A stretch of DNA of 64,000 nt from Escherichia phage Gostya9. Below, one piece after another: positions 17,211 through 61,418 of the stretch; within the stretch, counting starts at the first letter, position 1; every line of letters starts with the position of its first letter. The stretch lies in the sequence record NC_047979.1. One strand, 5' to 3'. A program made the position numbers and the translations under genes. Under the pieces are notes generated by a model that did not search any database, was not told the DNA's origin, and saw only the letters and a program-made list of their open reading frames with translations.

Positions 17211-17239
17211 ATTATATAATAACTAGGGCTAAAAGTCAA
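17211..17239 (-). promoter_or_regulatory. sigma70-type early promoter
   Basis: TTGACT-17-TATAAT on minus strand. Confidence 0.6.
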
Positions 17240-17252
17240 CTACTTTTTTATC

Positions 17253-17669: not shown

Positions 17670-17746
17670 GTCTTTCTCCTATCTTTAAGAAAAATTATTA
17701 AAGCCCCCTTGACTAAAAGCGGGAATATTCCCGCCTAAGTTATTAC

Positions 17747-18813: not shown

Positions 18814-18838
18814 TTTGTAACCTCCTCTAACCAATACC

Positions 18839-18867
18839 ATTATACTAATTTTGGAGGAAAATTACAA
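18839..18867 (-). promoter_or_regulatory. sigma70-type promoter (weaker -35)
   Basis: TTGTAA-17-TATAAT on minus strand. Confidence 0.45.
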
Positions 18868-18927
18868 TGTGTTTTTAAAGATTTTCTTTGGAGCACAAAA
18901 TTATGTCGTTGTCAAGAAGAATTTTAG

Positions 18928-18958
18928 ATAAAAGAAAAGCCAGAGTCGTTAAACCCTG
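18928..18958 (-). terminator. rho-independent terminator
   Basis: AAGCCAG..CTGGCTT stem followed on minus strand by TTCTTTTATC. Confidence 0.5.
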
Positions 18959-18970
18959 GCTTAAAATTAC

Positions 18971-19570
18971 TTACTCTTCGTTGTGTTCCTCGGATTGAGG
19001 TAACTGAGCTTTATTACATTGCTCAGATCGATATTTTGCCAAGATTTCAATACGCTTATGGATTTCCTCGCTATCTAGATAGATGTTTTTGTTGTCTTTT
19101 ACCATCTCGTCGATTTCATCTATTGAGAAGAACGGATAGTAGACATCTAGCATCATATCTTCTACGAACTTGTTATAAGATTCATAGGCTTTCTTGATTT
19201 CTTGACCTTTCTCACAGAACCCGCCAGAGAACGTGTGTCCCATTAGTGTAGCATGTGGATGTACTACCCATCCATGACAAGATAAGAAAATTGTGCAGTA
19301 AGCAGAAGCACTAGGACCAATTAGGTGTCCTATAACTGTTCCACGGCAATTAGCAATTAAGTTAGATAACTGTGCAGCGGTATCAACATAGCCACCAGGG
19401 CCGTTAATCATCAGATTAATTTCGTCGTCCTCATTTGCCTGCATAAGTACCATTGATAAATCACGGTATTCATCCGGCGGACCTAGTTCTTCATCAAAGA
19501 AAAAGGTATACTCGTTAGATTGGCGAATGGAGTGAAACAGGTTAGTCTTTTCTTCTTTTTTATTAGTCAT
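18971..19570 (-). CDS. ClpP-like serine protease
   Basis: 199 aa; INGPGG, GPSAS and VVHPH segments parallel ClpP INSPGG / catalytic Ser / His regions. Confidence 0.55.
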   Translation of the reverse strand: MTNKKEEKTNLFHSIRQSNEYTFFFDEELGPPDEYRDLSMVLMQANEDDEINLMINGPGGYVDTAAQLSNLIANCRGTVIGHLIGPSASAYCTIFLSCHGWVVHPHATLMGHTFSGGFCEKGQEIKKAYESYNKFVEDMMLDVYYPFFSIDEIDEMVKDNKNIYLDSEEIHKRIEILAKYRSEQCNKAQLPQSEEHNEE

Positions 19571-19582
19571 AGCGATCCTTGA

Positions 19583-20335
19583 TTATCCAACTAGTGGTTC
19601 TAGCTCTAAGTCACAGAAGTTATATACTTCTAGTTTAAGGTTATTGATGCCATTGAATTTATTAACTAATTCGTGAGTAATATATTTTGCAGGAATACCA
19701 CTTTCAGATGGATGATCTGATTTAATAGTGAACTTCTGCTCAGCGGGCACTATATTTACTAGTAAAGAATCCATATCTAAATGGTTCGTTTCTCTGAGTA
19801 ACTCTCCCTCATTGGGGAATCTCACATCTGTTATTACGGCGACATCTGGGTCGTCTTTAGCGATGGATTGCTCCAGAATTATGAGCCAAATGCGTTCATG
19901 TACCAGCTGTCTTCCTAGCTCTGTTCCTACGAGCTGTAACATTTTTCTCGGAGAAATAAATAAACTATAAAGTCCGTCTTCTTTATTCTCTGAGATAAGT
20001 TGTTGAGGATTAAGATATTTTTTCTCAAAAATCGGCCAAACGTACGAGAAGTCTTCAAACTTATTGATACCGTACTTAGACCATACGTCTCTAGCTCGCT
20101 CCAATTGAGATTGTGTGATCGTAAACCATTGGTCAATCTCTTTTCCCCTGCGCTCTCCTAGAATCTCTGGAGTTACACCGAGGATTACGGATGCAAGTTC
20201 ATAAACGGGCTTAGCAAAACTATAACGACGGGGTAAACGCGTTGGATACATATCATTACACCAATCGATAATTAATTTTGCAACAGTGTCTTTTCCAGAA
20301 CCAGCCCCGCCATGTAAACCTACTAATACTGACAT
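19583..20335 (-). CDS. dnk: deoxynucleoside monophosphate kinase
   Basis: 250 aa; P-loop GGAGSGKDT at N-terminus; size matches T5 dNMP kinase as recalled. Confidence 0.7.
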   Translation of the reverse strand: MSVLVGLHGGAGSGKDTVAKLIIDWCNDMYPTRLPRRYSFAKPVYELASVILGVTPEILGERRGKEIDQWFTITQSQLERARDVWSKYGINKFEDFSYVWPIFEKKYLNPQQLISENKEDGLYSLFISPRKMLQLVGTELGRQLVHERIWLIILEQSIAKDDPDVAVITDVRFPNEGELLRETNHLDMDSLLVNIVPAEQKFTIKSDHPSESGIPAKYITHELVNKFNGINNLKLEVYNFCDLELEPLVG

Positions 20336-25325: not shown

Positions 25326-25510
25326 TAGCTCTCCTGTTTGGTAGTTAGTAGGGGGTTTTGAACCACTGTAGTCGCTCCGTATGAAGGAGGTGCATAACCA
25401 CTCTGCCAACTAACTAGTATGTTTTACTAGACTAAGTAAGTATTCTTTATACTCTTTAGACCAGCTAGCTTTTTAAACTTTCCTGGACGCATAGTCTTAA
25501 TTCCTAGATT

Positions 25511-25587
25511 TGGTACTCCGGGAGGGATTTAAGCCCCCGATCTCTCGGTTATCAGCCGAGTGCTTTAGATCGCTAAGCTACCGAAGT
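25511..25587 (-). tRNA. tRNA, tentative Ile (anticodon GAU); atypical T-loop
   Basis: 7-bp acceptor complementarity, anticodon stem CTCGG/CCGAG with loop CTGATAA, encoded CCA; hand-folded. Confidence 0.4.
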
Positions 25588-25602
25588 ATTAAAATATTTA
25601 CA

Positions 25603-25893
25603 TCACACACTGTCTAAGTAAGAAGTATAATGGAATTTAGTTTCTCCAGTCTTATCTACTTCTACCTCAGTTCGTGGTACTTGATGAACCACACCATGAA
25701 TCATCTTATAGCGAATGCCTTTAGCTGGTTCATGATCTTTTGGAAATACTTGTTTAACCGTTACTACTTTATATCCTTCACGCGGTGTTAACACTACTAC
25801 TTGATCCCCCTCTTTGATTTTCCAAGAGGGTGGGAATTCATAGGTGTATCTTTGGCCACCGGTTTGGAACATAACAGAAAGATAACGTTTCAT
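25603..25893 (-). CDS. hypothetical protein
   Basis: 96-aa ORF downstream of promoter 25924-25952. Confidence 0.45.
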   Translation of the reverse strand: MKRYLSVMFQTGGQRYTYEFPPSWKIKEGDQVVVLTPREGYKVVTVKQVFPKDHEPAKGIRYKMIHGVVHQVPRTEVEVDKTGETKFHYTSYLDSV

Positions 25894-25923
25894 TTGGTTT
25901 CCCTCTCATTAATTTATATAAAT

Positions 25924-25952
25924 ATTATAGCAATAAATAAGAGAGAAAGCAA
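25924..25952 (-). promoter_or_regulatory. sigma70-type early promoter
   Basis: TTGCTT-17-TATAAT on minus strand. Confidence 0.65.
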
Positions 25953-25967
25953 ATGAATTTTTAAACT

Positions 25968-26043
25968 TGGTGCGGGATACGAGAGTCGAACTCGTGTCTA
26001 CTGGTTGGAAGCCGGTTATTCTAGCCGCTGAACTAATCACGCA
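25968..26043 (-). tRNA. tRNA, tentative Gly (UCC)
   Basis: CCA + acceptor + T-arm GTTCGACTC; anticodon loop CTTCCAA; hand-folded. Confidence 0.5.
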
Positions 26044-26053
26044 TTAATTTGGC

Positions 26054-26131
26054 TGGCAGGGGATATTGGATTTGAACCAATGATCTCGACTTCAAATGCC
26101 GTAGCTTTAGGCCAAGCTAAGCTAATCCCCA
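26054..26131 (-). tRNA. tRNA, tentative Gln (UUG)
   Basis: T-arm ATTGG-TTCAAAT-CCAAT; anticodon loop ATTTGAA; unpaired 1-72 as in tRNA-Gln. Confidence 0.5.
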
Positions 26132-26137
26132 ATTGTT

Positions 26138-26231
26138 TGGCAGAAGGTAGTGGATTTGAACCACTGATCAGGATTTCAGAGACCTCGGCCTTAACCGACT
26201 TGGCTCAGGTTCTTCAAGGCGCTTACCTTCA
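26138..26231 (-). tRNA. tRNA-like element with canonical 3' half; 5' boundary and anticodon unresolved
   Basis: CCA, acceptor 3' strand and T-arm GGTTCAAATCC are clear; D-arm GCC-AAGTCGGTTAA-GGC present but acceptor closure is ambiguous; overlaps 3' end of ORF 26168..26377. Confidence 0.3.
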
Positions 26232-26377
26232 TGATCTACTCGAATGACTCCGCATCCTTCGCAAACCACAACTGCACCATAACCTTCTTTGACTTCGGCT
26301 TCTGTAATCAGACCAGATAAGTCACCAGTATCTCTGCCCCACATATCAATGGAGCATTGTTTGCAGAAATCAGCCAT
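26168..26377 (-). CDS. small zinc-ribbon protein (uncertain)
   Basis: 69 aa with CKQC..CEGCG; C-terminal tail overlaps a tRNA-like element. Confidence 0.35.
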   Translation of the reverse strand: MADFCKQCSIDMWGRDTGDLSGLITEAEVKEGYGAVVVCEGCGVIRVDHEGKRLEEPEPSRLRPRSLKS

Positions 26378-26379
26378 AA

Positions 26380-26607
26380 TTAATCCTTATTACAAGTGGT
26401 AGAGAGGATGGTACGATCGGAGATCCAACCGCCAGTGTAAGCACCATTGACTTTATATTCAGTCAAAGTACCGTGACCACGAATAGCGAAAACTGTTAGG
26501 GTTTTCGTGCCCCCATAACCATCTTTAACAGTTACGGTACAATCTAATGATGTGCCGATAGTGCAGCCAGCTAAAGTCAGAGCAGCAATCAATACTAAGT
26601 ATTTCAT
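26380..26607 (-). CDS. small lipoprotein
   Basis: 75 aa; signal peptide with lipobox LAGC. Confidence 0.5.
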   Translation of the reverse strand: MKYLVLIAALTLAGCTIGTSLDCTVTVKDGYGGTKTLTVFAIRGHGTLTEYKVNGAYTGGWISDRTILSTTCNKD

Positions 26608-26630
26608 GTTGTTATCCTTGTTAAGTTAAT

Positions 26631-26703
26631 TGGTGCATCCTCAGGGAATCGAACCCCAATCGTAAAGTTCGTGGCTTTACATTCTTTCCATTGAAATAAG
26701 GAC
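26631..26703 (-). tRNA. tRNA, tentative Arg (ACG)
   Basis: CCA + acceptor GCGTCCT/AGGATGC; anticodon loop CCACGAA; hand-folded. Confidence 0.4.
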
Positions 26704-26711
26704 GCAATATT

Positions 26712-26788
26712 TGGGGTGGCTAGTGGAATTCGAATCCACATAGGCCTGATTCACAATCAGGATCATTAACCAATTATGATATAGCCAC
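26712..26788 (-). tRNA. tRNA-His (GUG)
   Basis: perfect 7-bp acceptor, T-arm GTGGA-TTCGAAT-TCCAC, anticodon stem CCTGA/TCAGG with loop TTGTGAA. Confidence 0.6.
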
Positions 26789-27011
26789 AATTGAAAACTC
26801 GCAGGGTTAGCGAAACCATCCTCAATTAGCATGTCTAGAATACTAATCAAGTTATCTCCTATTGCATGCAGCTCAAGACGAGTACGAATTTTCAATTGTG
26901 GCGGCTCTCCGAAACTCTTCTATTCTAGTCCCAGAAGCTTACTCCCGAACGCATGTCGGGGAAGTCTTTCCAAGCGCACCAAATAGCACCGTTACACTTT
27001 GAGCCATTATT

Positions 27012-27106
27012 TGGAGGTAGGTAAGGGGATCGAACCCTTACACCGTATCACTACGATCAACCGATTTCAAGTCGGAGTCCAGCGCCAGCCGTTGGATTGA
27101 CCTACC
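27012..27106 (-). tRNA. tRNA-Ser (UGA), type II
   Basis: 95 nt; perfect acceptor GGTAGGT; anticodon loop CTTGAAA; long variable arm. Confidence 0.5.
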
Positions 27107-27118
27107 ATATAAATTGTT

Positions 27119-27209
27119 TGGCGGAAGAGGAGAGATTTGAACTCTCAAGCCGTTTTACCAGTCAGCCACTTTCCAAGCGGTTTTCGTCGCCAATTCGATT
27201 TGCTCTTCC
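27119..27209 (-). tRNA. tRNA-Ser (GGA), type II
   Basis: 91 nt; perfect acceptor GGAAGAG; anticodon loop TTGGAAA; long variable arm. Confidence 0.5.
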
Positions 27210-27321
27210 AATCATAAGATGATGCCTCTATCACGCCAGGCAGTTACGCCTCGCTGGGATTCGAACCCATTAAAACAGCTCAACCGAGATAGTAGGTTTA
27301 ATTTACTCTGACCATCAAATT

Positions 27322-27398
27322 TGGTGCGTGACAAGGGATTCGAACCCTCAAAACCCGACTTCTAGGGACGGTATGTATGCCAATTCCATCAATCACGC
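27322..27398 (-). tRNA. tRNA, anticodon unresolved (loop CCUAGAA)
   Basis: CCA + acceptor GCGTGAT/GTCACGC + T-arm AAGGG-TTCGAAT; anticodon stem has one mismatch. Confidence 0.45.
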
Positions 27399-27406
27399 GT
27401 ATTTTG

Positions 27407-27477
27407 TGGAGAAAGAGGGAGTTGAACCCTCGTCTTCTGCGTGCAAAGCAGATGTTCTACCATTAAACTATATCCCC
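27407..27477 (-). tRNA. tRNA-Ala (UGC)
   Basis: anticodon stem TCTGC/GCAGA with loop TTTGCAC; G3-U70 wobble pair present; CCA not encoded. Confidence 0.55.
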
Positions 27478-27714
27478 AAATTCTTTAGTTTACTAAGGCT
27501 ATTAGCTCGGCGTAACTACAGCACCTTCGCTTCGAGCGGAAGGAACCGCGTCATCTCGCAAACCCGATACACTATTCAGTTGCCGCTGAATCTAGTGGAC
27601 TAATCTAGAACTTCTCCCGAGTCGTAGGATCGTGCTTTTTGGCAGCCAGTCCTAGGTCGAGCTAATACCTTAGTGAACTATGATGAGGATTTCTCCCCAT
27701 CAATTTATATAAAT

Positions 27715-27743
27715 ATTATAACAAGAAATTAAGCATCAAGCAA
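27715..27743 (-). promoter_or_regulatory. sigma70-type promoter heading the tRNA / small-RNA unit
   Basis: TTGCTT-17-TATAAT on minus strand; no protein gene downstream before tRNAs. Confidence 0.6.
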
Positions 27744-27761
27744 ATGAGTTTTTCTTGAAAT

Positions 27762-27837
27762 TGGTAGCGGGTTCCAGTACTGCCCTGGACTTACTTAGCT
27801 TATGAGACTAAGAAGAACTCTATGCCTTCCACCCGCA
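27762..27837 (-). tRNA. tRNA, tentative Met/Ile2 (CAU); atypical T-loop
   Basis: CCA + acceptor; anticodon stem CTTAGT/GCTAAG with loop CTCATAA; T-loop GGCAGTA non-canonical. Confidence 0.4.
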
Positions 27838-27843
27838 ATTATT

Positions 27844-27907
27844 TGGTCAGTGCGGCAGGACTCGAACCTGCGACCCGAATCATCCAGGGATCCCACGCTA
27901 CGCACTG
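27844..27907 (-). tRNA. truncated tRNA-like element (64 nt)
   Basis: perfect 7-bp acceptor CAGTGCG/CGCACTG, CCA and canonical T-arm GCAGG-TTCGAGT-CCTGC, but only 29 nt between them. Confidence 0.3.
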
Positions 27908-27915
27908 AAATTTTA

Positions 27916-28263
27916 TTAGTTTAACCGTAAAGTATTATCTACTTCACCATTAATTGTTCGGCATTCCTCTGGGATTGTCGGAGTGGCCTTGTATTCCCAC
28001 CACTCAGCACCATCATATTCCCCACGTTCTAGCCAAGTTCCATCGGCAAACCATACATTACCATAAAGTAATTGTCCACCGTATCCAGAATCATATTCAA
28101 AGTCTAGGTTATTAAGAAAATCCCCAATATCTTCTTCTGTATAACCTAAAGGTAATACCCAAACTTTTTTGTCCCCATAATACCCGAATTCTATTTTAAT
28201 ACACTTAACTTTAGAATTGGTATTTTTTAAGGCGAGTAGCAGCTCTTCTTTAGCATTACGCAT
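27916..28263 (-). CDS. hypothetical protein
   Basis: 115-aa ORF. Confidence 0.45.
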   Translation of the reverse strand: MRNAKEELLLALKNTNSKVKCIKIEFGYYGDKKVWVLPLGYTEEDIGDFLNNLDFEYDSGYGGQLLYGNVWFADGTWLERGEYDGAEWWEYKATPTIPEECRTINGEVDNTLRLN

Positions 28264-28288
28264 AGTATATTCTCATACTGAGTTAATT

Positions 28289-28362
28289 TGGCGCGACCGA
28301 TGGGATTTGAACCCACATTCCCCGTGACAGGGGAGTACCATTACCAAGCCAGCCCCTGTCGC
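28289..28362 (-). tRNA. tRNA-Asp (GUC)
   Basis: anticodon loop CTGTCAC flanked by CTCCC/GGGGA stem; T-arm GGGTTCAAATCCC; CCA encoded. Confidence 0.55.
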
Positions 28363-28371
28363 ATAATTCAT

Positions 28372-28557
28372 TTACTCATATTTGAGTTTTTCAATAGCTG
28401 CATTAAGTTCTTTTAGAGCTTCACGACGTTCTACCTGACCTTGAAGTTCTTCAAGAAGTTCCGCTTTCAGAGTCTCAATAATTTTACCACGAACCTTGAT
28501 ATTATTAATCAGATTATCACGATCAGCTTCTAGTCGAGCAATTGCATGAGTTGTCAT
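28372..28557 (-). CDS. small coiled-coil protein
   Basis: 61-aa ORF. Confidence 0.4.
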   Translation of the reverse strand: MTTHAIARLEADRDNLINNIKVRGKIIETLKAELLEELQGQVERREALKELNAAIEKLKYE

Positions 28558-28584
28558 ATCTATTTCCTCAGTTATTAATGAAAA

Positions 28585-28658
28585 TGGTATCTGTGGCTGA
28601 ATTTGATGTCAGCAATGATAGCTGGTTGGCTACCGGTTTACTTAACTCTACACAGAAT
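28585..28658 (-). tRNA. tRNA, anticodon unresolved
   Basis: CCA + acceptor + T-arm GCTGA..TCAGC; candidate anticodon loop TATCATT. Confidence 0.4.
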
Positions 28659-28659
28659 T

Positions 28660-28740
28660 TGGCGGGCCGTGTAGGATTCGAACCACCAACCCCGAAGGGC
28701 ACGGATTTACAGACCGCTGCAATAGCCATTCTGCCAACGA
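28660..28740 (-). tRNA. tRNA-Tyr (GUA)-like, type II; acceptor closure not confirmed
   Basis: anticodon loop CTGTAAA, variable arm CCC-TTCG-GGG, T-loop TTCGAAT and CCA; no complementary 5' acceptor strand found. Confidence 0.4.
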
Positions 28741-28939
28741 TGTACATTTAAAAGTATTCAAATACTTGTTTAAACACTTTTAAATATGTTTCCAACTTAG
28801 ATAACTATTATATCTAGTTTTAAGGCACTGAGCAAGTCAGATTTTGAAGAATTTGCTCAGTGCTATATTAGTTAGTCGAACTTAGGAGTAACAATTAAAG
28901 AGAATGGGAGTTCGAAAACTTCATCAATTTATACAACTA

Positions 28940-28969
28940 TTATACCAGAAATTTAAAGCAAAAGGCAAG
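28940..28969 (-). promoter_or_regulatory. sigma70-type promoter (weaker -35 TTGCCT)
   Basis: TTGCCT-18-TATAAT on minus strand, upstream of a tRNA pair. Confidence 0.5.
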
Positions 28970-28998
28970 TACATTTTTAAAAATTCTGTTCGGAGGAG

Positions 28999-29205
28999 CT
29001 AAACTCCAGATTCTTCAGCCAAGTCTAGACTAATAAGAGTTATAGCCATAATTGCTGCACCGTGTTCTTTTTCTCCGGTGTTTTTAGCAGAGTCTATAAT
29101 ACCCTTAATCTGTTCGTAATAACTTTTTACTTCTTGTTCAATGCCCGCCTCGGCTATCATGCCTTTAGTCATGAGTCGTTGCATGGTAATTTCACGGTTA
29201 GCCAT
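28999..29205 (-). CDS. hypothetical protein
   Basis: 68-aa ORF; start overlaps stop of an upstream unlisted small ORF. Confidence 0.4.
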   Translation of the reverse strand: MANREITMQRLMTKGMIAEAGIEQEVKSYYEQIKGIIDSAKNTGEKEHGAAIMAITLISLDLAEESGV

Positions 29206-29365
29206 GATGTTTCTCCAGCTTCATTTTTAATAGTTTACAGATGAAATCAACGTCTTCATCCGTGCCTAAGTCTCTATCCCCAAGGGTCGCCTTGAAGTTT
29301 TTCGTTAGTTCCATAAGAATAACTTCCCTAGAACGACGTGTTGGCGGAGGTGGATGTCTATACAT
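29199..29365 (-). CDS. small Pro-rich protein (about 55 aa)
   Basis: ATG after AAGGA RBS; stop overlaps next start (ATGGCTAA); below ORF-track cutoff. Confidence 0.3.
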
Positions 29366-29380
29366 CTTATTTCCTTAATT

Positions 29381-29455
29381 TGGTGGGTCGGAGGAGAATC
29401 TAACTCCTACTCGTTAGCTTATGAGGCCACCGCTTTAACTTTAAGCTACCGACCC
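29381..29455 (-). tRNA. tRNA-Met (CAU) family
   Basis: perfect acceptor GGGTCGG/CCGACCC, T-arm AGGAG-TTAGATT-CTCCT, anticodon loop CTCATAA. Confidence 0.5.
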
Positions 29456-29461
29456 TATGTT

Positions 29462-29550
29462 TGGTGGAAGAAGTGGGAATCGAACCCACAAGGCTATATT
29501 TCAAACCGACAGATTAGCAATCTGCTGCAATACCGTTATGCTATTCTTCC
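29462..29550 (-). tRNA. tRNA-Ser (GCU), type II
   Basis: 89 nt; perfect acceptor GGAAGAA/TTCTTCC; anticodon stem GCAGA/TCTGT with loop TTGCTAA; T-arm GTGGG-TTCGATT-CCCAC. Confidence 0.55.
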
Positions 29551-29565
29551 GAATTTATAAGATAT

Positions 29566-29594
29566 ATTATATTAGAAATTTAGCTTCATAGCAA
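29566..29594 (-). promoter_or_regulatory. sigma70-type promoter driving tRNA-Ser/tRNA-Met
   Basis: TTGCTA-17-TATAAT on minus strand. Confidence 0.6.
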
Positions 29595-30090
29595 GAAAAT
29601 TTTTCAAGTTTTCGGTAGACATCTCATCCACATCTACAGGAGAAACAAACCCATTTAATTGTCTAGCAAATTTTTCACCGGCAGGATCATTATCCCCAAC
29701 AGCTACCAATTTAAAAGGTAGTAATTTCAATTGCTTTAACAACGCTTTTCCGGGGGAAGAACCCAACATTGCTAGGGCAGGATAACCAGCATTATGTAAT
29801 GCTACAGCCTTAAATACAGATTCAGCAATCAATACTACTTTTTCATCCCCACTGAGAGTTTCTAGCCCCCATACACACTGTGCGGTAGAATAAGTAAAAT
29901 ATCTAGCTTCAGAGGGGCACTTACCATGACCTTTTGGAGCAGAAGGATTATAAGTCTGATAGCCTCTCAACATTCCAGAGAAGTCATACAACGGGACTGT
30001 TAGCCATCCTTCCGGACTTAACCAGCAATGATATTTATCTGTATCAAACCCTCTGGATAAGAGATGTTCTGTTAGTTCATCAACAGTCAT
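29572..30090 (-). CDS. hypothetical protein
   Basis: 172-aa ORF. Confidence 0.5.
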   Translation of the reverse strand: MTVDELTEHLLSRGFDTDKYHCWLSPEGWLTVPLYDFSGMLRGYQTYNPSAPKGHGKCPSEARYFTYSTAQCVWGLETLSGDEKVVLIAESVFKAVALHNAGYPALAMLGSSPGKALLKQLKLLPFKLVAVGDNDPAGEKFARQLNGFVSPVDVDEMSTENLKNFLAMKLNF

Positions 30091-30124
30091 ATTAGATTCC
30101 TCTCTCTCTCAAATTTATAAATAT

Positions 30125-30153
30125 ATTATACAGAGAATTTAGCATTCAAGCAA
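30125..30153 (-). promoter_or_regulatory. sigma70-type early promoter
   Basis: TTGCTT-17-TATAAT on minus strand. Confidence 0.65.
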
Positions 30154-30249
30154 TTGAATTTTTAAACTTTTTAGTGGAAAAATCTCAAGGCATTTAATGG
30201 CAGCACGTTGTTGCTGTAATAAGAGTATATGGTTCTAAAGAACCAAATA

Positions 30250-30284
30250 ATAAAGCCCTGCGCTCTCCAGGGAACGCAGGGCTT
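30250..30284 (-). terminator. rho-independent terminator
   Basis: AGCCCTGCG..CGCAGGGCT stem followed on minus strand by TTATTATTTGG; second small hairpin TGGTTC-TAAA-GAACCA adjacent. Confidence 0.55.
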
Positions 30285-30307
30285 ACTTCGAATATTACGT
30301 GTAGGTA

Positions 30308-31258
30308 TTACTTGTTACGCATATCCATAATCATCTGGCCATCGTAACCAGTGCCAACCACAGTCTGAGGTACACCACCTTGATACTTCTGAGCACGAAT
30401 CATTTCAACTTCTAGTTGCTTCCAGCGAATCATCTCAGGAGTAATGGTACGTTGCAGAGCGGCGTTAGCTTCAGCCTCTTTCTTAGCTGCGTACAGTTTA
30501 GCATCTGCATCACGTTCGTTTGCAATAGCTTGGTTGTTACGAGCTTCACGATCTGCTTCTGCTTGTTTAACCTTCTGCTGTGCTTCTTGTTCAACACGAG
30601 CCAACTCAGCTTTCGCAGCATTAACTTGTTCTTCACGAACTTTGGTATTCTGTACCTGTTCCATGATTACAGGCGGCAAAGTAATATCCTGAAGGAACAC
30701 TTGCTTAACTGTGTAACCATAAGGGCGTGCATACTCTTCAACTTCCTGTTGAATTGCAGTTTGTAATTGAGCCTGAATTTTAGCATCAAACAAATCTTGT
30801 GCTTTAGGAACAGACTTGCCGAACTCACGAATAGTGGATAACAGCTTCTCTGTTACGTACTTATCTAGAGCCTGATCCTGAGTACCTGCGTTAATACGGT
30901 TAATCGGTGCCTTAGAACCATCAAACTGCAACATAACAGTCAGATCAACAGTGGATTTAAACTTATCCTGACTAGGAACCTGAAGTTTATCTAATTTTAC
31001 CGCAATGTCTTTTGTACTAAAAGTATCAAAAGATGCAAATGGGTTTACAATATGGAAACCCGGTAATACTGGATTAGGGTCTACTTTACCCAGGAATGTT
31101 TGAGTTTTAACCGTACCATCAGAAACAATAGTATATGAATTAAAAGCTAAAATCAAGCCTGCTAAACCAACTACAGCACCAACTACGATGCGCTTAACAG
31201 CGCGAATGTTCTTTTGTTCGGTGGTCAACGGCTTGTCAGATTTGTTTTTGCTAAACAT
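30308..31258 (-). CDS. SPFH/band-7 (prohibitin-like) membrane protein
   Basis: 316 aa; N-terminal TM, SPFH-like core, Ala/Gln/Glu-rich coiled-coil C-terminus. Confidence 0.6.
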   Translation of the reverse strand: MFSKNKSDKPLTTEQKNIRAVKRIVVGAVVGLAGLILAFNSYTIVSDGTVKTQTFLGKVDPNPVLPGFHIVNPFASFDTFSTKDIAVKLDKLQVPSQDKFKSTVDLTVMLQFDGSKAPINRINAGTQDQALDKYVTEKLLSTIREFGKSVPKAQDLFDAKIQAQLQTAIQQEVEEYARPYGYTVKQVFLQDITLPPVIMEQVQNTKVREEQVNAAKAELARVEQEAQQKVKQAEADREARNNQAIANERDADAKLYAAKKEAEANAALQRTITPEMIRWKQLEVEMIRAQKYQGGVPQTVVGTGYDGQMIMDMRNK

Positions 31259-31294
31259 ATAGTTCCTTTACTTTTGGTTATGATGAATGAAAAT

Positions 31295-31371
31295 TGGTAC
31301 TCCGTAAGGGATTCGAACCCCTAATCAAGAACTTAGAACGATCTTGCCTTATCCAATTTGGCCAACGGAGC
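31295..31371 (-). tRNA. tRNA, anticodon unresolved (possibly Arg UCU)
   Basis: CCA + acceptor GCTCCGT/ACGGAGT + T-arm GGGGTTCGAATCCC + D-arm GCC..GGC; anticodon stem has one mismatch. Confidence 0.5.
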
Positions 31372-31899
31372 ATGAATCTGGGCTTTAATTAGTTCTTCTA
31401 CAAGTGAAGGGTTTAGTTTAAACCATTCTCCTGTGGTGTTGTAGTCTTTAAATGTTCTATGCACTAGGTTCTCTACTGAATAAGCATCTTCACAGAAGAA
31501 CCATCTGAGTATACTGAAGGATTTTTCCGGTGAGAAACAATTTGCTTCTTCTAACCTGCGAGCAGGTTCTATGGACTTACCTACTTTTATAAACTCAGGG
31601 CATTTGGAATCTTGCATTATGTAGACAAAACCTTCCCTAGACCTTAACTTGCTAACCACCGTACAATCACGATATTTTAATAGGTTGATAGCTGCTAGTC
31701 TGAAATATTGTCGCAGTAAACTTTTTTGTTTACTTGGTCTTAGTTTTGAGAATGCTAGTTTATCTTCTATTTTTAGTAAAGCCACTTGATTTACTAAACT
31801 GTAAGTAATTTTGAACCATTCATTACATTTAGGGATCAGCCCTAAATTAATGGCTTTGGTTATTTGTCCTATGTCATAGGAGTTATCTCTCATATACAT
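31333..31899 (-). CDS. T5orf172-domain / GIY-YIG-like protein
   Basis: 188 aa; GFVYIM..FIKVGKS..P..R..E pattern typical of the T5orf172 family as recalled; 3' end overlaps the tRNA, so the exact stop needs checking. Confidence 0.5.
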   Translation of the reverse strand: MYMRDNSYDIGQITKAINLGLIPKCNEWFKITYSLVNQVALLKIEDKLAFSKLRPSKQKSLLRQYFRLAAINLLKYRDCTVVSKLRSREGFVYIMQDSKCPEFIKVGKSIEPARRLEEANCFSPEKSFSILRWFFCEDAYSVENLVHRTFKDYNTTGEWFKLNPSLVEELIKAQIHAPLAKLDKARSF

Positions 31900-32408
31900 A
31901 TTCCTGTGTCGATATTTTTAAGAACTCTCGTAAAAACTCTTAAAAATACAGACGATACCGGGAGAGTCATAAGTCTCACTCATTAAGTATTTCAAGACAA
32001 AATACAGTAACGTCTATTATTTTCCAGTTTAAGTCAAGGTGACTTAGTGGTTATGCCCTGCGGTATACTGGGGACTCGGTTAGGTTAGGGTCATGACTTC
32101 CTACCTTTTTGCTGCTACTCAACAGGAGTTATCGCGAATTACCTGTGCTATTGTGCACCATTAGTGGCATCTCTCATGCCAGCATTTCCCACTTTGTGGA
32201 TAGTTTGAAAAACTACTCCGATATGGAGGGAGAACTTCACTATCCTAGAATACCTTCTAAAGTTCTTCTTTAGCCTGGACATAGTTAAATCGTAATAAAA
32301 CTATTCAGCAGACTGGTTGGTTAGCCTGGAACCAACTACCGCGTGGTTTAGGCAGTGCGCAACTAACCTCGGAAGCTTTTACGTTAAAAGCACCAGTTAT
32401 CCAGTTCT

Positions 32409-32480
32409 TACCGATCGTAGGATTCGAACCTACATCTTCCACCAGTTACGGCTTGATAATACCGTTTATACTAGATCGGC
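32409..32480 (-). tRNA. tRNA, anticodon unresolved
   Basis: acceptor GCCGATC/GATCGGT, T-arm GTAGG-TTCGAAT-CCTAC; CCA not encoded. Confidence 0.45.
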
Positions 32481-32556
32481 AGTGTTACTACATAAGTGAT
32501 TTCCACACCCCACTATTTATAACTTAGAGAAGAATTACTCTCTAATTTATGAATAT

Positions 32557-36449: not shown

Positions 36450-36965
36450 TTACTTCGCTTTACGTTTACGAGCTGGTTTAGCGGATTTACGAGCAGAATC
36501 ACCCGTAAATTTAATACCCACACCATAGCATAGAGCACGAACGTTATCTTTGCTATATTCTACGCCGAAGATATTTGGCTTAACAGAACCAAACTGGCCA
36601 CGAGTATCACGCAGTACATCTGCCGTTGGTTTACGCTTCTGGTTAACTGCTTTCTCATAGTCTTTCATGGCCATGCCATTACGAGGGAACAACTCAGCTC
36701 CAGCATTGAAACTCAGTGTTACTGGAACAGATTTGTGACCGTAACCCTGTACATAGGTTACGAGGCGGACTACAGAACGAGTAGCATTCTTAGCCTTCGG
36801 CTTTTGACGAATCGGAGCCGGACGATTCAGTGCCTGTGCAGCTTGAGCATCAGTAGGATGCTTGCGCAGGTGGCGTTCCAGACGAGCTTTGCGGTTAGCC
36901 TCAGTCTGTGGGAAAGTTTTAACTGCCGGAGCTGCTTGAGTTTTTGCGTTTTTCTGCTTAGCCAT
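36450..36965 (-). CDS. basic hypothetical protein
   Basis: 171-aa ORF, Lys/Arg-rich. Confidence 0.5.
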   Translation of the reverse strand: MAKQKNAKTQAAPAVKTFPQTEANRKARLERHLRKHPTDAQAAQALNRPAPIRQKPKAKNATRSVVRLVTYVQGYGHKSVPVTLSFNAGAELFPRNGMAMKDYEKAVNQKRKPTADVLRDTRGQFGSVKPNIFGVEYSKDNVRALCYGVGIKFTGDSARKSAKPARKRKAK

Positions 36966-55459: not shown

Positions 55460-55870
55460 ATGACTACTCCAACTCAGTGGACTGATGAACTGTTTGAAAA
55501 AATGTCTTCCGAATACGTTGCTCGTATGGAGCAATTCCCAGAGGATGAACGTCCGAGTGTTAGCATGGAAATTGTTAGTGAAATTGCCCAGGAAAATGGT
55601 GTAACTCCGAACGGTTTTCGTATGAAGCTGACTAAAGCAGGTTTGTATATCAAGAAAGCTGCTGGCTCCGCTTCTAAATCTAGTGCATCTACTGGAGAAA
55701 AAGCTTCCGGTGGTTCTCGTACCTCCAAAGCCCAGGCCCATGCGGATCTTCGTTCAGCATTCTCTGATGCTGGCTTAGCACCAGATTTTCTGGATGATGC
55801 AATTATCGACAAACTGACTGGTAAAGCGGCTGCTCATCTGGCTGAAGCAATCCGAGCTATCACTAAGTAA
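55460..55870 (+). CDS. hypothetical protein
   Basis: 136-aa ORF with Ser/Ala-rich linker. Confidence 0.45.
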   Translation: MTTPTQWTDELFEKMSSEYVARMEQFPEDERPSVSMEIVSEIAQENGVTPNGFRMKLTKAGLYIKKAAGSASKSSASTGEKASGGSRTSKAQAHADLRSAFSDAGLAPDFLDDAIIDKLTGKAAAHLAEAIRAITK

Positions 55871-56619: not shown

Positions 56620-57591
56620 ATGACTAATGTAAAAGAATTTATTAAACGCTGTCAAGAAGCATATTATCAGGGCATGTCTTTAATCTCTGATGAGGAGTAT
56701 GATCGCCTGGTAAAACGCTTCCCGTTAGAGGAAGAGATCGGGCCTAAGGGTGATATTCCACACCTATATCGTATGTATTCTTTACAGAAAGTTTATTATA
56801 ATCGTGGAGATAAACCCCCATTTGACCCGTTAGGTCAAGTAGAAACTGATAAGTTAGATGGTTGTGCGATTTCCCTGCTATATATTAACGGTGAATTTGT
56901 TCAAGCACTAACTCGTGGTAATGGTATTCTGGGAAATGATGTCACAAGCAACGTAAGATTGCTGAACATCCCTAAAAAGATTTCCCAAAAAGTACCTACT
57001 CAAATCACTGGTGAAGTTCTAATTACAAAAGAAGTAGAAAATAAACGTAACTTTGCCTCTGGTGCTATTAACCTCAAAGATAGTGATGATTTCATGCAAC
57101 GTATCGGGGAAGGTGGTTTAATCTTCGTTGCATACGGTATCCAGTGTTCTGCTGAATCTGTAGGTATTACAGAAGCGTATTTAAAAGATATGCTTTGGCT
57201 AGAGAATGAGAACTTCTTAACAGTTGTTAATGTGCGTTCCTTCTTTAAATGGATTCCGACGGACGGTAAAGTTGTTCGTATTAATGACAATAACAAATTC
57301 TTCCGTGAAGGTTGGACTAATAAATTTCCTCGTGGGGCATTCGCTATTAAAGAGGATGAAGAAGGCGAGATTACAACTCTTACTAAAGTTGAATGGCAGG
57401 TAGGGGCTTCTGGTAAAGTAACTCCAGTCGGTTATTTTGAACCAGTAATTATTGATGATGCTACAATTGTTAAAGCGACTCTTAATAATGTTGATTATAT
57501 TAACTCTCTCGATCTAGAGATCGGTTGCCAGATTCGAGTGATTCGTGCTGGTGGTGTAATCCCGTGCATAGTAGAGCGAGTTTATGATTAA
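56620..57591 (+). CDS. NAD-dependent DNA ligase, N-terminal (adenylation/OB) part
   Basis: 323 aa; adenylation motif KLDG (ETDKLDGCAIS) with flanking LigA-type sequence; ends before the Zn-finger/HhH/BRCT region. Confidence 0.75.
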   Translation: MTNVKEFIKRCQEAYYQGMSLISDEEYDRLVKRFPLEEEIGPKGDIPHLYRMYSLQKVYYNRGDKPPFDPLGQVETDKLDGCAISLLYINGEFVQALTRGNGILGNDVTSNVRLLNIPKKISQKVPTQITGEVLITKEVENKRNFASGAINLKDSDDFMQRIGEGGLIFVAYGIQCSAESVGITEAYLKDMLWLENENFLTVVNVRSFFKWIPTDGKVVRINDNNKFFREGWTNKFPRGAFAIKEDEEGEITTLTKVEWQVGASGKVTPVGYFEPVIIDDATIVKATLNNVDYINSLDLEIGCQIRVIRAGGVIPCIVERVYD

Positions 57592-57639
57592 TACATAACC
57601 CTTTGCTACCCCTCTACCATATCGGAATTATAAAGTGGT

Positions 57640-57668
57640 TATTGACATTTTCGCCGCTTAGGTATATA
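57640..57668 (+). promoter_or_regulatory. sigma70 promoter in the ligA-ligB spacer
   Basis: TTGACA-17-TATACT. Confidence 0.5.
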
Positions 57669-57734
57669 CTATTATCATTCAGTTGAGGGATAGAAAGTTA
57701 TGGCGAGGGTAAGCAAAGTTAGTTAAAATTGTAG

Positions 57735-57763
57735 TTGCTAAATGCTTAAATACTTGCTATAAT
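57735..57763 (+). promoter_or_regulatory. sigma70 promoter for ligase B
   Basis: TTGCTA-17-TATAAT. Confidence 0.65.
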
Positions 57764-57790
57764 ATTTATATAAATTGATAAGGAAGAAAT

Positions 57791-58573
57791 TTGATGAAAA
57801 TCGAAATTCCAACACAATGTCCCTCTTGTGGTTCTAAGCTAGATCTTGTCAACGGACAATTATTCTGTCGTAATAAGTCCAACTGTCCAGCGCAATCAAG
57901 TAAGTTAATTGAGAACTTCTGTACAAAAATGAAGTTAAAGGGCTTTGGCCCGAAAACTATTGAGAAGCTGGAGCTGACGAAGATTTCAGAACTATTTTAC
58001 CTAACCGAAGAAGATTTGGTTAGAGCCGTGGGTAGCAAGGTTGCCGCTAAGTTAATTAGCGAATTAAATACTAAAGTTCGCGGAGACATTGACTTTGGTT
58101 CAGTTCTCGGTTCTTTAGGAATCCCTCTAATTGGAGAGGTTGCAGCAAAGAAATTATCCCAAAATTGCACTAGCTTCCACGATGTGAAGGCTGACGGCAG
58201 GGCTGGAGAAAACTATAAAGCCTGGCTAAATTCCCCACAAGGCAAGGATGTTATCGAATTACCGTGGAAATTCACAACCGGTATTAAAGGTGCTAAAGCT
58301 GAGGTCAGCATTACTGATGGTCTAGTAGCCCAACCAAATGGAATCACGGTGTGTATTACCGGATCTTTGCAAGATTTTGCAAATAGAACGGATGCAACAA
58401 ACTATCTAGAAGGTCTAGGGTATACTGTTAAAAAATCAGTTACCAAAGACGTTAAATACCTCATCTGTGAGGATGAATCTAAGCGTTCTTCCTCATCTTA
58501 TAAGAAAGCCGAAACGAATGGGATAGAAATCCTGTCGATTAAAGAACTATTGGAGAAAAATAATAATGTCTAA
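57791..58573 (+). CDS. NAD-dependent DNA ligase, C-terminal (Zn-finger/HhH/BRCT) part
   Basis: 260 aa; N-terminal CPSCGS..C..C zinc finger then helix-hairpin-helix-like and BRCT-like regions. Confidence 0.7.
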   Translation: MMKIEIPTQCPSCGSKLDLVNGQLFCRNKSNCPAQSSKLIENFCTKMKLKGFGPKTIEKLELTKISELFYLTEEDLVRAVGSKVAAKLISELNTKVRGDIDFGSVLGSLGIPLIGEVAAKKLSQNCTSFHDVKADGRAGENYKAWLNSPQGKDVIELPWKFTTGIKGAKAEVSITDGLVAQPNGITVCITGSLQDFANRTDATNYLEGLGYTVKKSVTKDVKYLICEDESKRSSSSYKKAETNGIEILSIKELLEKNNNV

Positions 58574-59333
58574 ACTGAACTGGAACGTAGAAGGTGTAAC
58601 CGAGTCTCTGAAAGCAAAAGCCACTGCTCTGGGTGTTGCTGTAATCTCTCAAGAACAAGTAGCTGCTATCGCTGCTGAACTGGCTGCTGAAACTGGCAAA
58701 GACGTTACCGCTCGCTCTGTTGGCTCTAAGCTGCGTAAAGAAGGTTTCGAAGTACAGAAAGCTAACGAAGTACAGAAATCCCCGTGGACTCCTGAGCAGG
58801 AAGCTGAACTGGTTGATTTCCTGAACTCTCATGCTGGTCAGTATACTTATGCTGAAATCGCTGCTGCTGTAGCTGGTGGTCAATTTGGTGCTAAGCAGGT
58901 ACAGGGTAAGATCCTGAGTCTGGAAATGACCGCTTCTGTTAAACCAACTGAAAAAGCTGCTGCTGTTCGTTCCTTCACTCCTGATGAAGAAACTGATTTT
59001 GTTAATCAGGTTGTTGCTGGTGCTACTATTGAAGCTATTGCTGCTCACTTCGGTCGTAATATCAAGCAGATCCGTGGTAAAGCTCTGAGTCTGCTTCGTG
59101 AAGGTCGTATCGCTGCTATGCCGGTACAGGAAACTTCAAGTGCTAAAACTCGTGAAGATCTGCTAGAAGGTCTGGATCTGGCTAACATGACTGTTGCTGA
59201 GATCGCTGAGAAAACTGGTAAGTCTGAGCGCGGTGTTAAATCTATGCTGTCTCGTCGTGGTCTGGTTGCTAAGGACTATGATGGTGCCGCTAAGCGTGCT
59301 AAACTGGATGCAAAAGCTGCGGCTGCTGAATAA
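58566..59333 (+). CDS. protein with three tandem HTH-like repeats, GC-rich codon usage
   Basis: 255 aa; repeated T..E.A...G...R.V..KL...G modules; strong CTG/GCT codon bias unlike neighbours. Confidence 0.5.
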   Translation: MSKLNWNVEGVTESLKAKATALGVAVISQEQVAAIAAELAAETGKDVTARSVGSKLRKEGFEVQKANEVQKSPWTPEQEAELVDFLNSHAGQYTYAEIAAAVAGGQFGAKQVQGKILSLEMTASVKPTEKAAAVRSFTPDEETDFVNQVVAGATIEAIAAHFGRNIKQIRGKALSLLREGRIAAMPVQETSSAKTREDLLEGLDLANMTVAEIAEKTGKSERGVKSMLSRRGLVAKDYDGAAKRAKLDAKAAAAE

Positions 59334-59351
59334 TCTGGTAAATTAAACCTA

Positions 59352-59386
59352 AGGGGTGGGGGCTATGCCTCTACCCCTTTTTGCAT
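59352..59386 (+). terminator. terminator-like hairpin
   Basis: AGGGGTG..CACCCCT-like stem followed by TTTTT; lies inside the ORF-track N-terminus of the next gene. Confidence 0.45.
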
Positions 59387-59415
59387 TTAGAAGGCACGAA
59401 AGCGTGCAAAGGAGA

Positions 59416-60888
59416 ATGACCTTGTTTAACGTGCAAGCTGTAGTGTTGAAGATGCTTCTAGCTTCCGAACAGAAGCAAATAGCATTGGAAACATTCTCAA
59501 AACTGCATAAAGATCATTTTAATGACGCTTTCTCCTCAATTTACCAAGCCGTCCAGAATTATTATAAAAAATATAACACAATGCCGTCCATTGACGCACT
59601 GATGCTTGAGGCTAATAGGAACGCCCGCCTTTCTCAAGCTCTAGTCGTTTTAGCTAACACTCAAATTCCAGAAGTTAGCATGGAACAGGCACTTGAAGTC
59701 CTAGAGGCCGAGTATACACAGGATTTATTCCTGAAGCTTCTAGAAACAGACGTGCTTCAAGATTTAACAATGCTGGATCAGGGAGAAATTCTTAACCGAG
59801 TTGCCTCCCTTCACTTAAAATTAGAAGAGAAAGTAACGAATACTGGAAAAGTATTCAACGCAGATAACATGCGTATTTTCCAGAGAGAAGAAGATACCAA
59901 ACTGAACTTAATCGCTCTTGGTATTTGTAATGAGTTCGACGCTCAAATTGGTTTAGCTCGCACAGAAACGTTACTGCTTGGTGGTTGGCGTGGTACTGGT
60001 AAATCCATTATCTGTTCAAACATACAGGTTCAGCAATATTTGAATGGAGATATTGCTCCATACTTCTCAATTGAGATGAAAGAACATGAAGTATTTAGAC
60101 GTAATCTAGCTATGTTAGCTGGTGTATCAGCACTAGCAATGCGTAATAATACTCTAGAAGGTGCAGCTCTGTTGAGATTAGCCAGAACTAGAGCTAGGAT
60201 GTTTAACGGTGGTGAAGAGCTTTTCGATAACTTCGTTAAACAGTACACAATGGCTAAGATGAGTGATTTCTACGATATGGAAAGTAAGCTAATAGAAGGA
60301 TATGAGCTACATACTCCTATGATTATTGTTTATGATCCTGAGCTGTCTATTACAACAGTTGACGTAGAATTAAATAAATTAGTTGCTAGATATGGGGATA
60401 AAGTTACAGTAGCTTTACTAGACTATATTAACCAAACCCGACTTCCAGACTCTAAAACCATTGATATGTATGACTGGAAAGAACAGATGGTTGTTAGCTC
60501 GTCTTTCAAATCTATCTGCCAGAAACATAACGTGGCTGGTGTAGCTCCTTACCAGATCGATCAAGATGGTAGAACACGTATGTCGAAGGGGATTCTTGAT
60601 TCCGCAGACATGGCTGCTAATCTTAATGCTGCAAAAGCTGATAATGGTCAAGGTGCTATTATGTTTGACTTCGTTAAGACTCGGTCTTCTGATAGCGTGA
60701 AGTTTATGCCTAAAATGAACTGGGAAACCCTGCGGATGGATAACACTACCAACCTAGCAATGGAAGATATATCTCAAATGGAAGCTGAGTTCGTTATCCC
60801 TATTGAGAAGGATAAGCCGACTCAATCTAAACGTGCTAAGAAAGACAAAGCTGAAAATTCAACAGGTGAACAGGCCAGCGATATATGA
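59416..60888 (+). CDS. DnaB-like replicative helicase
   Basis: ATG after AAGGAG RBS (490 aa); RecA-fold Walker A GWRGTGKS. Confidence 0.65.
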   Translation: MTLFNVQAVVLKMLLASEQKQIALETFSKLHKDHFNDAFSSIYQAVQNYYKKYNTMPSIDALMLEANRNARLSQALVVLANTQIPEVSMEQALEVLEAEYTQDLFLKLLETDVLQDLTMLDQGEILNRVASLHLKLEEKVTNTGKVFNADNMRIFQREEDTKLNLIALGICNEFDAQIGLARTETLLLGGWRGTGKSIICSNIQVQQYLNGDIAPYFSIEMKEHEVFRRNLAMLAGVSALAMRNNTLEGAALLRLARTRARMFNGGEELFDNFVKQYTMAKMSDFYDMESKLIEGYELHTPMIIVYDPELSITTVDVELNKLVARYGDKVTVALLDYINQTRLPDSKTIDMYDWKEQMVVSSSFKSICQKHNVAGVAPYQIDQDGRTRMSKGILDSADMAANLNAAKADNGQGAIMFDFVKTRSSDSVKFMPKMNWETLRMDNTTNLAMEDISQMEAEFVIPIEKDKPTQSKRAKKDKAENSTGEQASDI

Positions 60889-61418
60889 TAACACAGGAAA
60901 GGCTAAAAGAGTTATTTGATTACTCCCCAGTTTCTGGGGAGTTTACTAGAAAAGTATCTAGAGGTAATCAGAAAGCTGGTAGTATAATAACCAGAAAAGA
61001 CTCTAACGGTTATATAATTATTGGTATAGATGGCAAGGATTACAAAGCCCATCGGATGGCTTTTCTATTTATGGAAAATACATTGCCGGAAAAAGTAGAC
61101 CATGTAAACAGAATACCTTTTGATAATAGGTGGTGTAATCTAAGAGACGCCACAGCTCAGGAAAATAGTAGAAATAAAACCGCATGTAGTAAGTCTGGAT
61201 ATTTGGGAGTTGCTTGGGATATCGAAAAACAAAGATGGAGAGTTCAAGTAAGAGACTCTAATAGCACTCTTAAAAATGGTGGCAGATTTAAGTATGAAGA
61301 GCTAGAGCTAGCTGTAAATTCAGCAAATATATTAAGGACTAAGTTACATGGAGAACGTGCTGTTATAGAAATTTTTGATACATCTAATTATCCTTCACTG
61401 GAGGAGTTAAATTCATGA
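60885..61418 (+). CDS. HNH homing endonuclease (paralog 3 of 3)
   Basis: 177 aa; MITQERLKELFDY..GYIIIGIDGKDYKAHRMAF..VDHVNR..NRWCNLRDAT..ENSRNKT; overlaps both neighbours. Confidence 0.75.
   Translation: MITQERLKELFDYSPVSGEFTRKVSRGNQKAGSIITRKDSNGYIIIGIDGKDYKAHRMAFLFMENTLPEKVDHVNRIPFDNRWCNLRDATAQENSRNKTACSKSGYLGVAWDIEKQRWRVQVRDSNSTLKNGGRFKYEELELAVNSANILRTKLHGERAVIEIFDTSNYPSLEELNS

Follow-up and report, generated by a model that had tools for sequence, protein, structure and literature searches.

Codon usage and predicted module architecture of the D5 gene in Escherichia phage Gostya9

The D5 locus and its transcription unit

The window analyzed in this study is the whole 64,000-nucleotide stretch of Escherichia phage Gostya9 DNA (NC_047979.1). 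One of its open reading frames, whose exact limits had already been given by a first-pass annotation made from the sequence alone, lies between the genes for NAD-ligase subunit B and a DnaB-like helicase, and thus falls within the early replication module as judged from the window ORFs and from the annotations of phages T5 and AG74. The features surrounding this frame are as follows.

57642-57670, plus strand: sigma-70 promoter-like site found by scanning, TTGACA-17-TATACT (11/12), equivalent to the T5 early promoter P-K 28b
57735-57763, plus strand: sigma-70 promoter-like site found by scanning, TTGCTA-17-TATAAT with an extended -10 TG, equivalent to T5 P-K 28a
57794-58573, plus strand: ligB, encoding NAD-dependent DNA ligase subunit B, located upstream of D5, with a stop that overlaps the D5 start by 8 nt
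58566-59333, plus strand: D5 coding sequence, ATG to TAA, 255 amino acids, 27.0 kDa, pI 6.8
59351-59389, plus strand: intrinsic-terminator-like hairpin of 13 bp (8 G-C) followed by a T-rich tail, directly 3' of the D5 stop

The product is identical to the D5 protein of phage T5 (T5.118, YP_006946.1) at 252 of 255 amino acids and is equal to it in length. The T5 gene occupies the same slot, between ligB and the D6 helicase gene, and its flanking promoters match as well. The only substitutions relative to T5 D5 are A25D, S88A, and A206V, none of which is substantive. Comparison with the T5 proteins encoded between ligase and helicase, which had been proposed as a check, therefore leads directly to D5. 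Furthermore, PHROG 323 (‘transcriptional regulator, D5-like’) matches the protein over its full length (residues 1-253, E=1.7e-71), and NCBIfam contains no model for the D5 family. A 6.5-kb segment around the gene shares 96-97% identity with T5 and related phages and has matches in 526 phage records. The T5 annotation describes D5 as a DNA-binding protein that is needed for DNA replication and late transcription and that has a role in the shutoff of expression, which agrees with the earlier guess of a DNA-binding replication or late-transcription factor. Knowledge of the D5 gene goes back to the 1970s, so the frame represents an already known gene.

Both promoters, P-K 28b and P-K 28a, are placed between ligA and ligB in the T5 annotation. 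The hairpin that follows D5, placed at 59351-59379, has a folding energy of -25.7 kcal/mol (z = -2.9), and the D5 gene of Vibrio phage AG74 is likewise trailed by a comparable hairpin and a run of T residues. Judging from these sequence elements, D5 appears to close a short transcription unit that runs from two strong early promoters through ligB and D5 to a putative hairpin terminator. Partial termination at this hairpin would leave D5 mRNA more plentiful than the mRNA of the helicase downstream.

Helix-turn-helix modules of D5

The structure of D5 was modeled with AlphaFold2 on an alignment of 35 sequences (pLDDT 91.6, pTM 0.48). The individual domains in this model are confident, and with such a pTM the mutual orientation of the modules is uncertain and should be regarded as undefined. 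The model contains four three-helix HTH modules, called M1 to M4 here, followed by a C-terminal helix.

58581-58745, plus strand: M1, residues about 6-60, tri-helical HTH with helices 11-22, 29-43, and 49-58, a divergent copy of M2/M3
58785-58925, plus strand: M2, residues about 74-120, Myb/homeodomain-like tri-helical HTH with helices 76-88, 95-101, and 109-118
58974-59105, plus strand: M3, residues about 137-180, a duplicate of M2 with helices 139-150, 155-162, and 166-178
59172-59264, plus strand: M4, residues about 203-233, sigma-70 region 4-type HTH with a short turn at 205-207 and helices 210-217 and 221-231
59274-59330, plus strand: conserved C-terminal segment DYDGAAKRAKLDAK..., with a helix at 240-254 and invariant D237 and G240

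The relationship between M2 and M3 is clear from a profile comparison (hhalign, 96%, E=3e-9 over 45 columns), and the duplication can still be seen in the DNA, where 30-nt segments are 73% identical. With a profile built from M2 and M3, an in-register match to M1 is obtained in 10 of the 35 family members (i-E<0.01). The best of these matches reaches 2e-5 and 15.5 bits, whereas reversed sequences score no more than 3.9 bits. M4 gives no match to the M2/M3 profile, but it does pass the Pfam gathering score for Sigma70_r4_2 (PF08281; 29.7 versus 25.7 bits), with a match that joins residues 204-230 of D5 to profile positions 23-49 of 54 only. As modeled, D5 thus has a 3+1 arrangement in which three homologous Myb/GcrA-like repeats are combined with one HTH resembling sigma-70 region 4. 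The first-pass annotation had counted three HTH-like repeats, which comes close but leaves out one of the four modules. The C-terminal segment may contribute to self-association or to the binding of a partner.

Conserved columns of the D5 family concentrate in helix 3 of every module, the helix that serves for recognition in tri-helical HTH domains. In M1, the invariant or near-invariant positions of this helix are R50, S51, G53, K55, L56, and R57 (invariant: R50, K55, L56, and R57). The corresponding positions in M2 are K110, Q111, Q113, G114, K115, L117, and S118, of which Q113, G114, K115, and L117 are invariant, and those in M3 are R170, G171, K172, L174, S175, and L176, with G171 and K172 invariant. 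For M4, the invariant residues are G223, L228, and R231, with R230 and G232 close to invariant.

Similarity to Myb/SANT domains is found only at the level of fold and profile. Full-length D5 scores 18.0 bits against Pfam Myb_DNA-binding (PF00249), which is below the gathering score of 24.4, and single modules reach an E value of about 1e-3 at best against the same model. The module profile nevertheless matches Myb repeats of SNAPc4, c-Myb, and Timeless (E=2e-5 to 8e-4). Sequence searches identified no solved structure for D5, and the best match of the full-length profile was a designed homeodomain (E=0.01). The best structural match was the GcrA DNA-binding domain (PDB 5yiu), which covers one 47-residue HTH of D5. 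Among viral structure models, the whole architecture was recovered only in D5 orthologues (TM 0.66); the other hits align with one or two HTH units at a TM of about 0.2.

A role for these modules in DNA binding is supported by recent work on a bacterial defense system. According to a July 2026 preprint, the type IX retron Kva2 is set off by T5 D5, which also remodels the msDNA complex of the retron in vitro (PMC13405049). AlphaFold3 modeling in the same study predicts that D5 binds the msDNA stem-loop through an HTH, and the escape phage carried the D5 mutations G53D, W74*, V149I, and G232D (PMC13405049). When placed on our D5 alignment, G53D and G232D fall on conserved helix-3 glycines of M1 and M4, respectively. 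The msDNA remodeling and these helix-3 glycine escape mutations together support the D5 HTH as a DNA binder (PMC13405049). Mass photometry in the absence of DNA indicated a D5 monomer of about 26 kDa (PMC13405049). A ‘DNA-binding protein’ reported to trigger DRT4 (PMC12783706) is ORF55 rather than D5 and is not relevant here.

Codon usage and abundance

Codon adaptation index (CAI) weights were derived from 30 E. coli K-12 genes for ribosomal proteins, EF-Tu, EF-G, and rpoA, and these weights correlate at 0.977 with the Sharp & Li table. Comparisons within the window used the 76 called ORFs of at least 80 amino acids, which are D5 and 75 others. A genome-scale set of 110 genes was created by adding 34 annotated genes from the remainder of the T5 genome to the window ORFs.

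The CAI of D5 is 0.774, versus a mean of 0.359 (sd 0.098, maximum 0.614) for the 75 other window ORFs. It is also the highest of all 110 genes (z = 4.2; others 0.358 ± 0.100), so that D5 lies outside the genome-wide distribution of codon statistics. The proteins that follow are the major head protein pb8 (0.711), the D11 SSB (0.673), and the DNA-binding protein D3 (0.614), and all the rest are at or below 0.55. The reference E. coli ribosomal-protein and EF genes range from 0.55 to 0.84 and cryptic gsp genes from 0.24 to 0.39, which places D5 within the range of the E. coli ribosomal-protein genes. Likewise, the effective number of codons (ENC) of D5 is 31.1, compared to a minimum of 33.3 among the other window ORFs. 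When codons for the D5 amino acid sequence were redrawn from the synonymous usage of the window, the observed CAI stood 14.7 standard deviations (z = 14.7) above expectation. The codon usage that had been called strikingly different from that of the neighboring genes is therefore extreme, both by rank and given the amino acid sequence, and the suggested comparison with highly expressed host genes bears this out.

The bias is carried by a small number of strong preferences. CTG accounts for 89% of Leu codons in D5 (16% in other window genes), GCT for 89% of Ala codons (40%), GGT for 89% of Gly codons (45%), and CGT for 83% of Arg codons (41%). Further synonymous choices are ATC (80%), ACT (80%), and TCT (62%), and the codons AGA, AGG, GGA, GGG, ATA, and TTA are entirely absent from the coding sequence. 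The preferred codons are those of E. coli ribosomal-protein genes. D5 also makes little use of the A-ending codons that pair with the window-encoded U34 tRNAs (GGA, CAA, CTA, GCA, and AGA), which account for 2.4% of its codons and 8.8% of those elsewhere. Relative to T5, pS is 0.073 for D5, a value not clearly below the 0.083 of ligB and the 0.090 of hegJ, and over this short divergence no added constraint on the silent sites of D5 can be seen.

The first-pass annotation had described these choices as GC-rich codons, which proved to be a misreading. At 0.309, the GC3 of D5 is ordinary (0.337 ± 0.066 in others), and the third-position T content of 0.484 is the maximum in the window. D5 does have a G+C content of 47.1%, versus 39.3% for the window, but the excess resides in codon positions 1 and 2 (GC1 0.66, GC2 0.445). 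It arises because the protein is rich in Ala, Gly, Val, and Glu: 17.6% of its residues are Ala, and residues with GNN codons amount to 47%, versus 33% in other genes. The synonymous bias of D5 is thus directed at the translationally optimal, mostly T-ending codons of E. coli instead of at G+C.

The genes with the highest CAI values have in common a demand for protein in bulk (capsid, SSB, and DNA-binding proteins), which favors high expression as the basis of the bias. D5 is indeed very abundant in T5 and BF23 lysates (PMC10644984), and this finding, together with the CAI signature, agrees with the earlier suggestion of a highly expressed gene. Spectral counts from a phiR2-01 preparation likewise placed D5 among its major proteins (PMC8624392).

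Alternative explanations, proposed role, and known systems

We consider the most probable reading, to which we assign a probability of roughly 0.85, to be that the ORF at 58566-59333 of this T5-like phage (Tequintavirus) encodes D5, an early and very abundant dsDNA-binding protein that the phage needs for replication, for switching late genes on, and for switching early genes off. In work by Rice et al. in 1979 and by Fujimura & Roop in 1983, D5 was reportedly a protein of about 29 kDa that binds dsDNA cooperatively and, on duplex templates, modulates T5 DNA polymerase.

As an alternative, D5 would be a late-transcription factor with sequence specificity, resembling either a sigma factor or a GcrA-like adaptor, and would direct host RNA polymerase to late promoters without any general coating of DNA. 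This idea draws on the Sigma70_r4_2 score of M4, on the structural match to GcrA, a protein that works with sigma-70, and on the genetics in the T5 annotation, by which late transcription depends on D5. It would also address the T5 early-to-late switch, which is unexplained and in which both classes have promoters of the sigma-70 type (PMC7472727). However, Pfam detected no sigma region 2 in D5 and only a sub-threshold Sigma70_r3 (20.8 versus 25.3 bits), and the NCBIfam sigma-70 family model TIGR02937 scored 15.2 against a cut-off of 42.9. Since sigma regions 2 and 3 are missing and the family score is sub-threshold, we rejected D5 as a sigma factor. As to the adaptor version, neither Pfam (E up to 10) nor PDB sequence searches returned a GcrA family match, and the structural likeness is confined to a single HTH. 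Moreover, an abundance in lysates like that of major structural proteins (PMC10644984), combined with the top CAI, exceeds what regulation would require, and DNA replication also needs D5. The historic T5 proteins associated with RNA polymerase, as listed in PMC7472727, have masses of 60, 11, 90, and 15 kDa, rather than about 27-29 kDa. A specific-factor role may account for part of D5 function, but we regard it as improbable that this is the main role.

Far less probable is the recent horizontal acquisition of D5 from a GC-richer donor, in which case its codon usage would be the signature of that donor. The elevated G+C content and a codon table unlike that of every neighbor are what such an origin would produce, and recent acquisition had been offered as an option by the first-pass annotation. 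GC3, however, is the best reporter of donor composition and is ordinary in D5, the GC excess of positions 1 and 2 comes from the amino acid composition, and the preferred codons are the E. coli ribosomal-protein set. Furthermore, tblastn identified D5 in 901 phage records with Escherichia, Salmonella, Klebsiella, Proteus, Vibrio, Aeromonas, and Pectobacterium hosts. Vibrio phage AG74, which belongs to another subfamily (Ermolyevavirinae), has a D5 that is 48% identical and retains the gene order ligB-D5-helicase-primase-polymerase. Among 34 AG74 genes, D5 has the strongest bias (ENC 31.1), ahead of the SSB (35.8) and a D3-like protein (36.0), but it favors CTA for Leu and CAA for Gln, whereas Gostya9 D5 favors CTG and CAG. 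Because a donor signature would be common to both lineages and the preferred codons differ between them, ongoing selection appears to re-tune the bias in each lineage. We therefore rejected horizontal transfer based on the ordinary GC3, the family-wide distribution, the synteny, and the lineage-specific codon choice.

The following feature on the opposite strand bears on the weakest explanation, in which the bias is a by-product of an antisense gene, of RNA structure, or of an Ala-rich composition.

58539-59048, minus strand: antisense ORF of 169 amino acids in the codon-aligned frame

Although this long ORF exists and the amino acid composition of D5 is very skewed, the by-product explanation is scarcely credible, since the bias persists after conditioning on the amino acid sequence, the antisense translation is of low complexity (rich in Ser, Phe, and Asn), and unrelated abundant proteins (capsid, SSB, and D3) carry the same bias. 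The antisense frame is open because D5 avoids TTA, CTA, and TCA (2 observed versus 13.6 expected, both 3' of position 59048), and we rejected it as a real gene on these grounds.

How an abundant dsDNA-binding protein might serve both replication and the transcriptional switch can be sketched from the module map. Based on the structural model, helix 3 of all four modules would engage the duplex, such that one monomer would span a stretch of DNA with little sequence preference. Many copies of D5 would then coat the replicating phage DNA. This coating would alter the choice of promoters by host RNA polymerase, turning early genes off and late genes on, and it would also change the working of the T5 replisome. 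D5 would be needed in stoichiometric amounts for some 500 genome copies per cell, and selection for fast and cheap translation of such a protein would account for the codon bias. Low-specificity binding in proportion to the DNA pool would fit the dual phenotype in replication and late transcription as well as the abundance of the protein. One property of D5 that is unusual for a bulk DNA coat is its nearly neutral charge, with K+R equal to D+E at 34 and a pI of 6.8. The monomeric state of DNA-free D5 in mass photometry (PMC13405049) also counts against the coating proposal.

Taken to its full extent, this proposal would make D5 a phage ‘chromatin’ protein. Its three Myb/GcrA-like HTHs and one sigma-region-4-like HTH would form a beads-on-a-string array that coats replicating T5 DNA stoichiometrically, and its occupancy alone would switch host sigma-70 RNA polymerase away from early promoters and onto late ones. 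The abundance of D5 could then be the pattern that is sensed by DNA-based sensors such as type IX retrons. We advance this extended version tentatively, at somewhat under even odds.

The codon finding is real but ordinary, because selection on the translation of a bulk protein is a textbook explanation, and the abundance of D5 accounts for the signal without opening a new question. We consider the map of 3+1 HTH modules to be modestly new, along with the CAI/ENC ranking that recurs in the Vibrio relative. We found no published description of the 3+1 architecture or of the helix-3 invariants, and the retron preprint mentions only ‘a helix-turn-helix motif’ (PMC13405049). Codon adaptation alone flags the bulk proteins D5, capsid, SSB, and D3 in a T5-like phage, and the repetition of the ranking in AG74 makes it a cheap flag for abundant proteins in unannotated phage genomes. 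The domain map could guide mutagenesis aimed at the unsolved T5 early-to-late switch, and it could also guide work on the triggering of retron defense by D5.

Comparisons with known systems place D5 apart from each of its nearest likenesses. Myb repeats, as found in c-Myb R1R2R3, SNAPc4, and Timeless, have a regular tryptophan triad, whereas D5 keeps the first aromatic residue only. Unlike Myb repeats, the D5 modules are separated by long linkers and are followed by a fourth, different HTH. The comparison with GcrA is limited to its isolated 49-residue DNA-binding domain, whereas D5 has four modules. The p6 protein of phage phi29 resembles D5 in function only: as described in two sources (PMC10899789, PMC3100819), it is early, very abundant, dsDNA-binding, and needed for replication and for a transcriptional switch. 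The two proteins are unrelated in sequence and fold, given that D5 is built from HTH modules. The likeness also stops short of the multimeric wrapping of DNA, which has been demonstrated for phi29 p6.

Codon-adapted genes and phage tRNAs

Codon adaptation (CAI, calculated against 30 E. coli K-12 ribosomal-protein, EF-Tu, EF-G and rpoA genes) is elevated in the following genes besides D5, the T5-like DNA-binding protein gene.

3376-3792 (-), 138-aa protein of the pre-early region, PHROG 1725 "DNA binding protein"
36450-36965 (-), 171-aa protein with no assigned function, PHROG 4516
55460-55870 (+), early protein D3, PHROG 1725 "DNA binding protein"

Because the 138-aa pre-early protein and D3 (CAI 0.530 and 0.614, respectively) belong to the same PHROG, the former is identified as a D3 paralogue. 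Mutations in D3 were also carried by phages escaping retron-Kva2, a type IX retron triggered by T5 D5 (PMC13405049). The PHROG 4516 protein ranks third in the window (CAI 0.601, z = 6.8) and, by the reasoning applied to D5, may be an abundant product, making it a candidate for characterisation.

25339-32481 (-), twelve phage tRNA genes (ARAGORN)

Five of the twelve tRNAs carry U34 anticodons (Gly-TCC, Gln-TTG, Leu-TAG, Ala-TGC and Arg-TCT) that read A-ending codons, and the codons read by these five tRNAs make up 8.8% of codons in ordinary phage genes but only 2.4% in D5. Among the twelve is a tRNA-Ser whose anticodon, ACT, is unusual.

An antisense ORF within D5

58539-59048 (-), 169-aa ORF in the codon-aligned frame

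This ORF, whose translation is of low complexity and rich in Ser, Phe and Asn, was rejected as a real gene and is a by-product of codon avoidance, since D5 contains only 2 TTA, CTA or TCA codons where 13.6 are expected.

Gene arrangement around D5

The start of the downstream DnaB-like helicase gene D6 is probably misplaced in the T5 annotation (window 59351-59431), where the annotated ATG corresponds to 59365, within the terminator-like hairpin following D5. The N-terminus of the helicase of Vibrio phage AG74, a distant relative, (M-I-N-V-Q-A-V-V-L-K) pairs with window residues L-F-N-V-Q-A-V-V-L-K, and this alignment points to a start either at TTG 59422, preceded by AGGAG at a distance of 7 nt, or at ATG 59416.

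56620-58573 (+), NAD-dependent ligase in two genes, ligA and ligB (compared with AG74, 17200-19996)
60885-61418 (+), HNH homing-endonuclease gene (hegJ in T5) between the helicase and primase genes

Since the helicase and primase genes directly adjoin in AG74, the hegJ-type gene is, judged by gene order, a lineage-specific insertion. The gap between ligA and ligB holds two promoters. The AG74 ligase halves are separated by two additional genes, one of them DprA-like.
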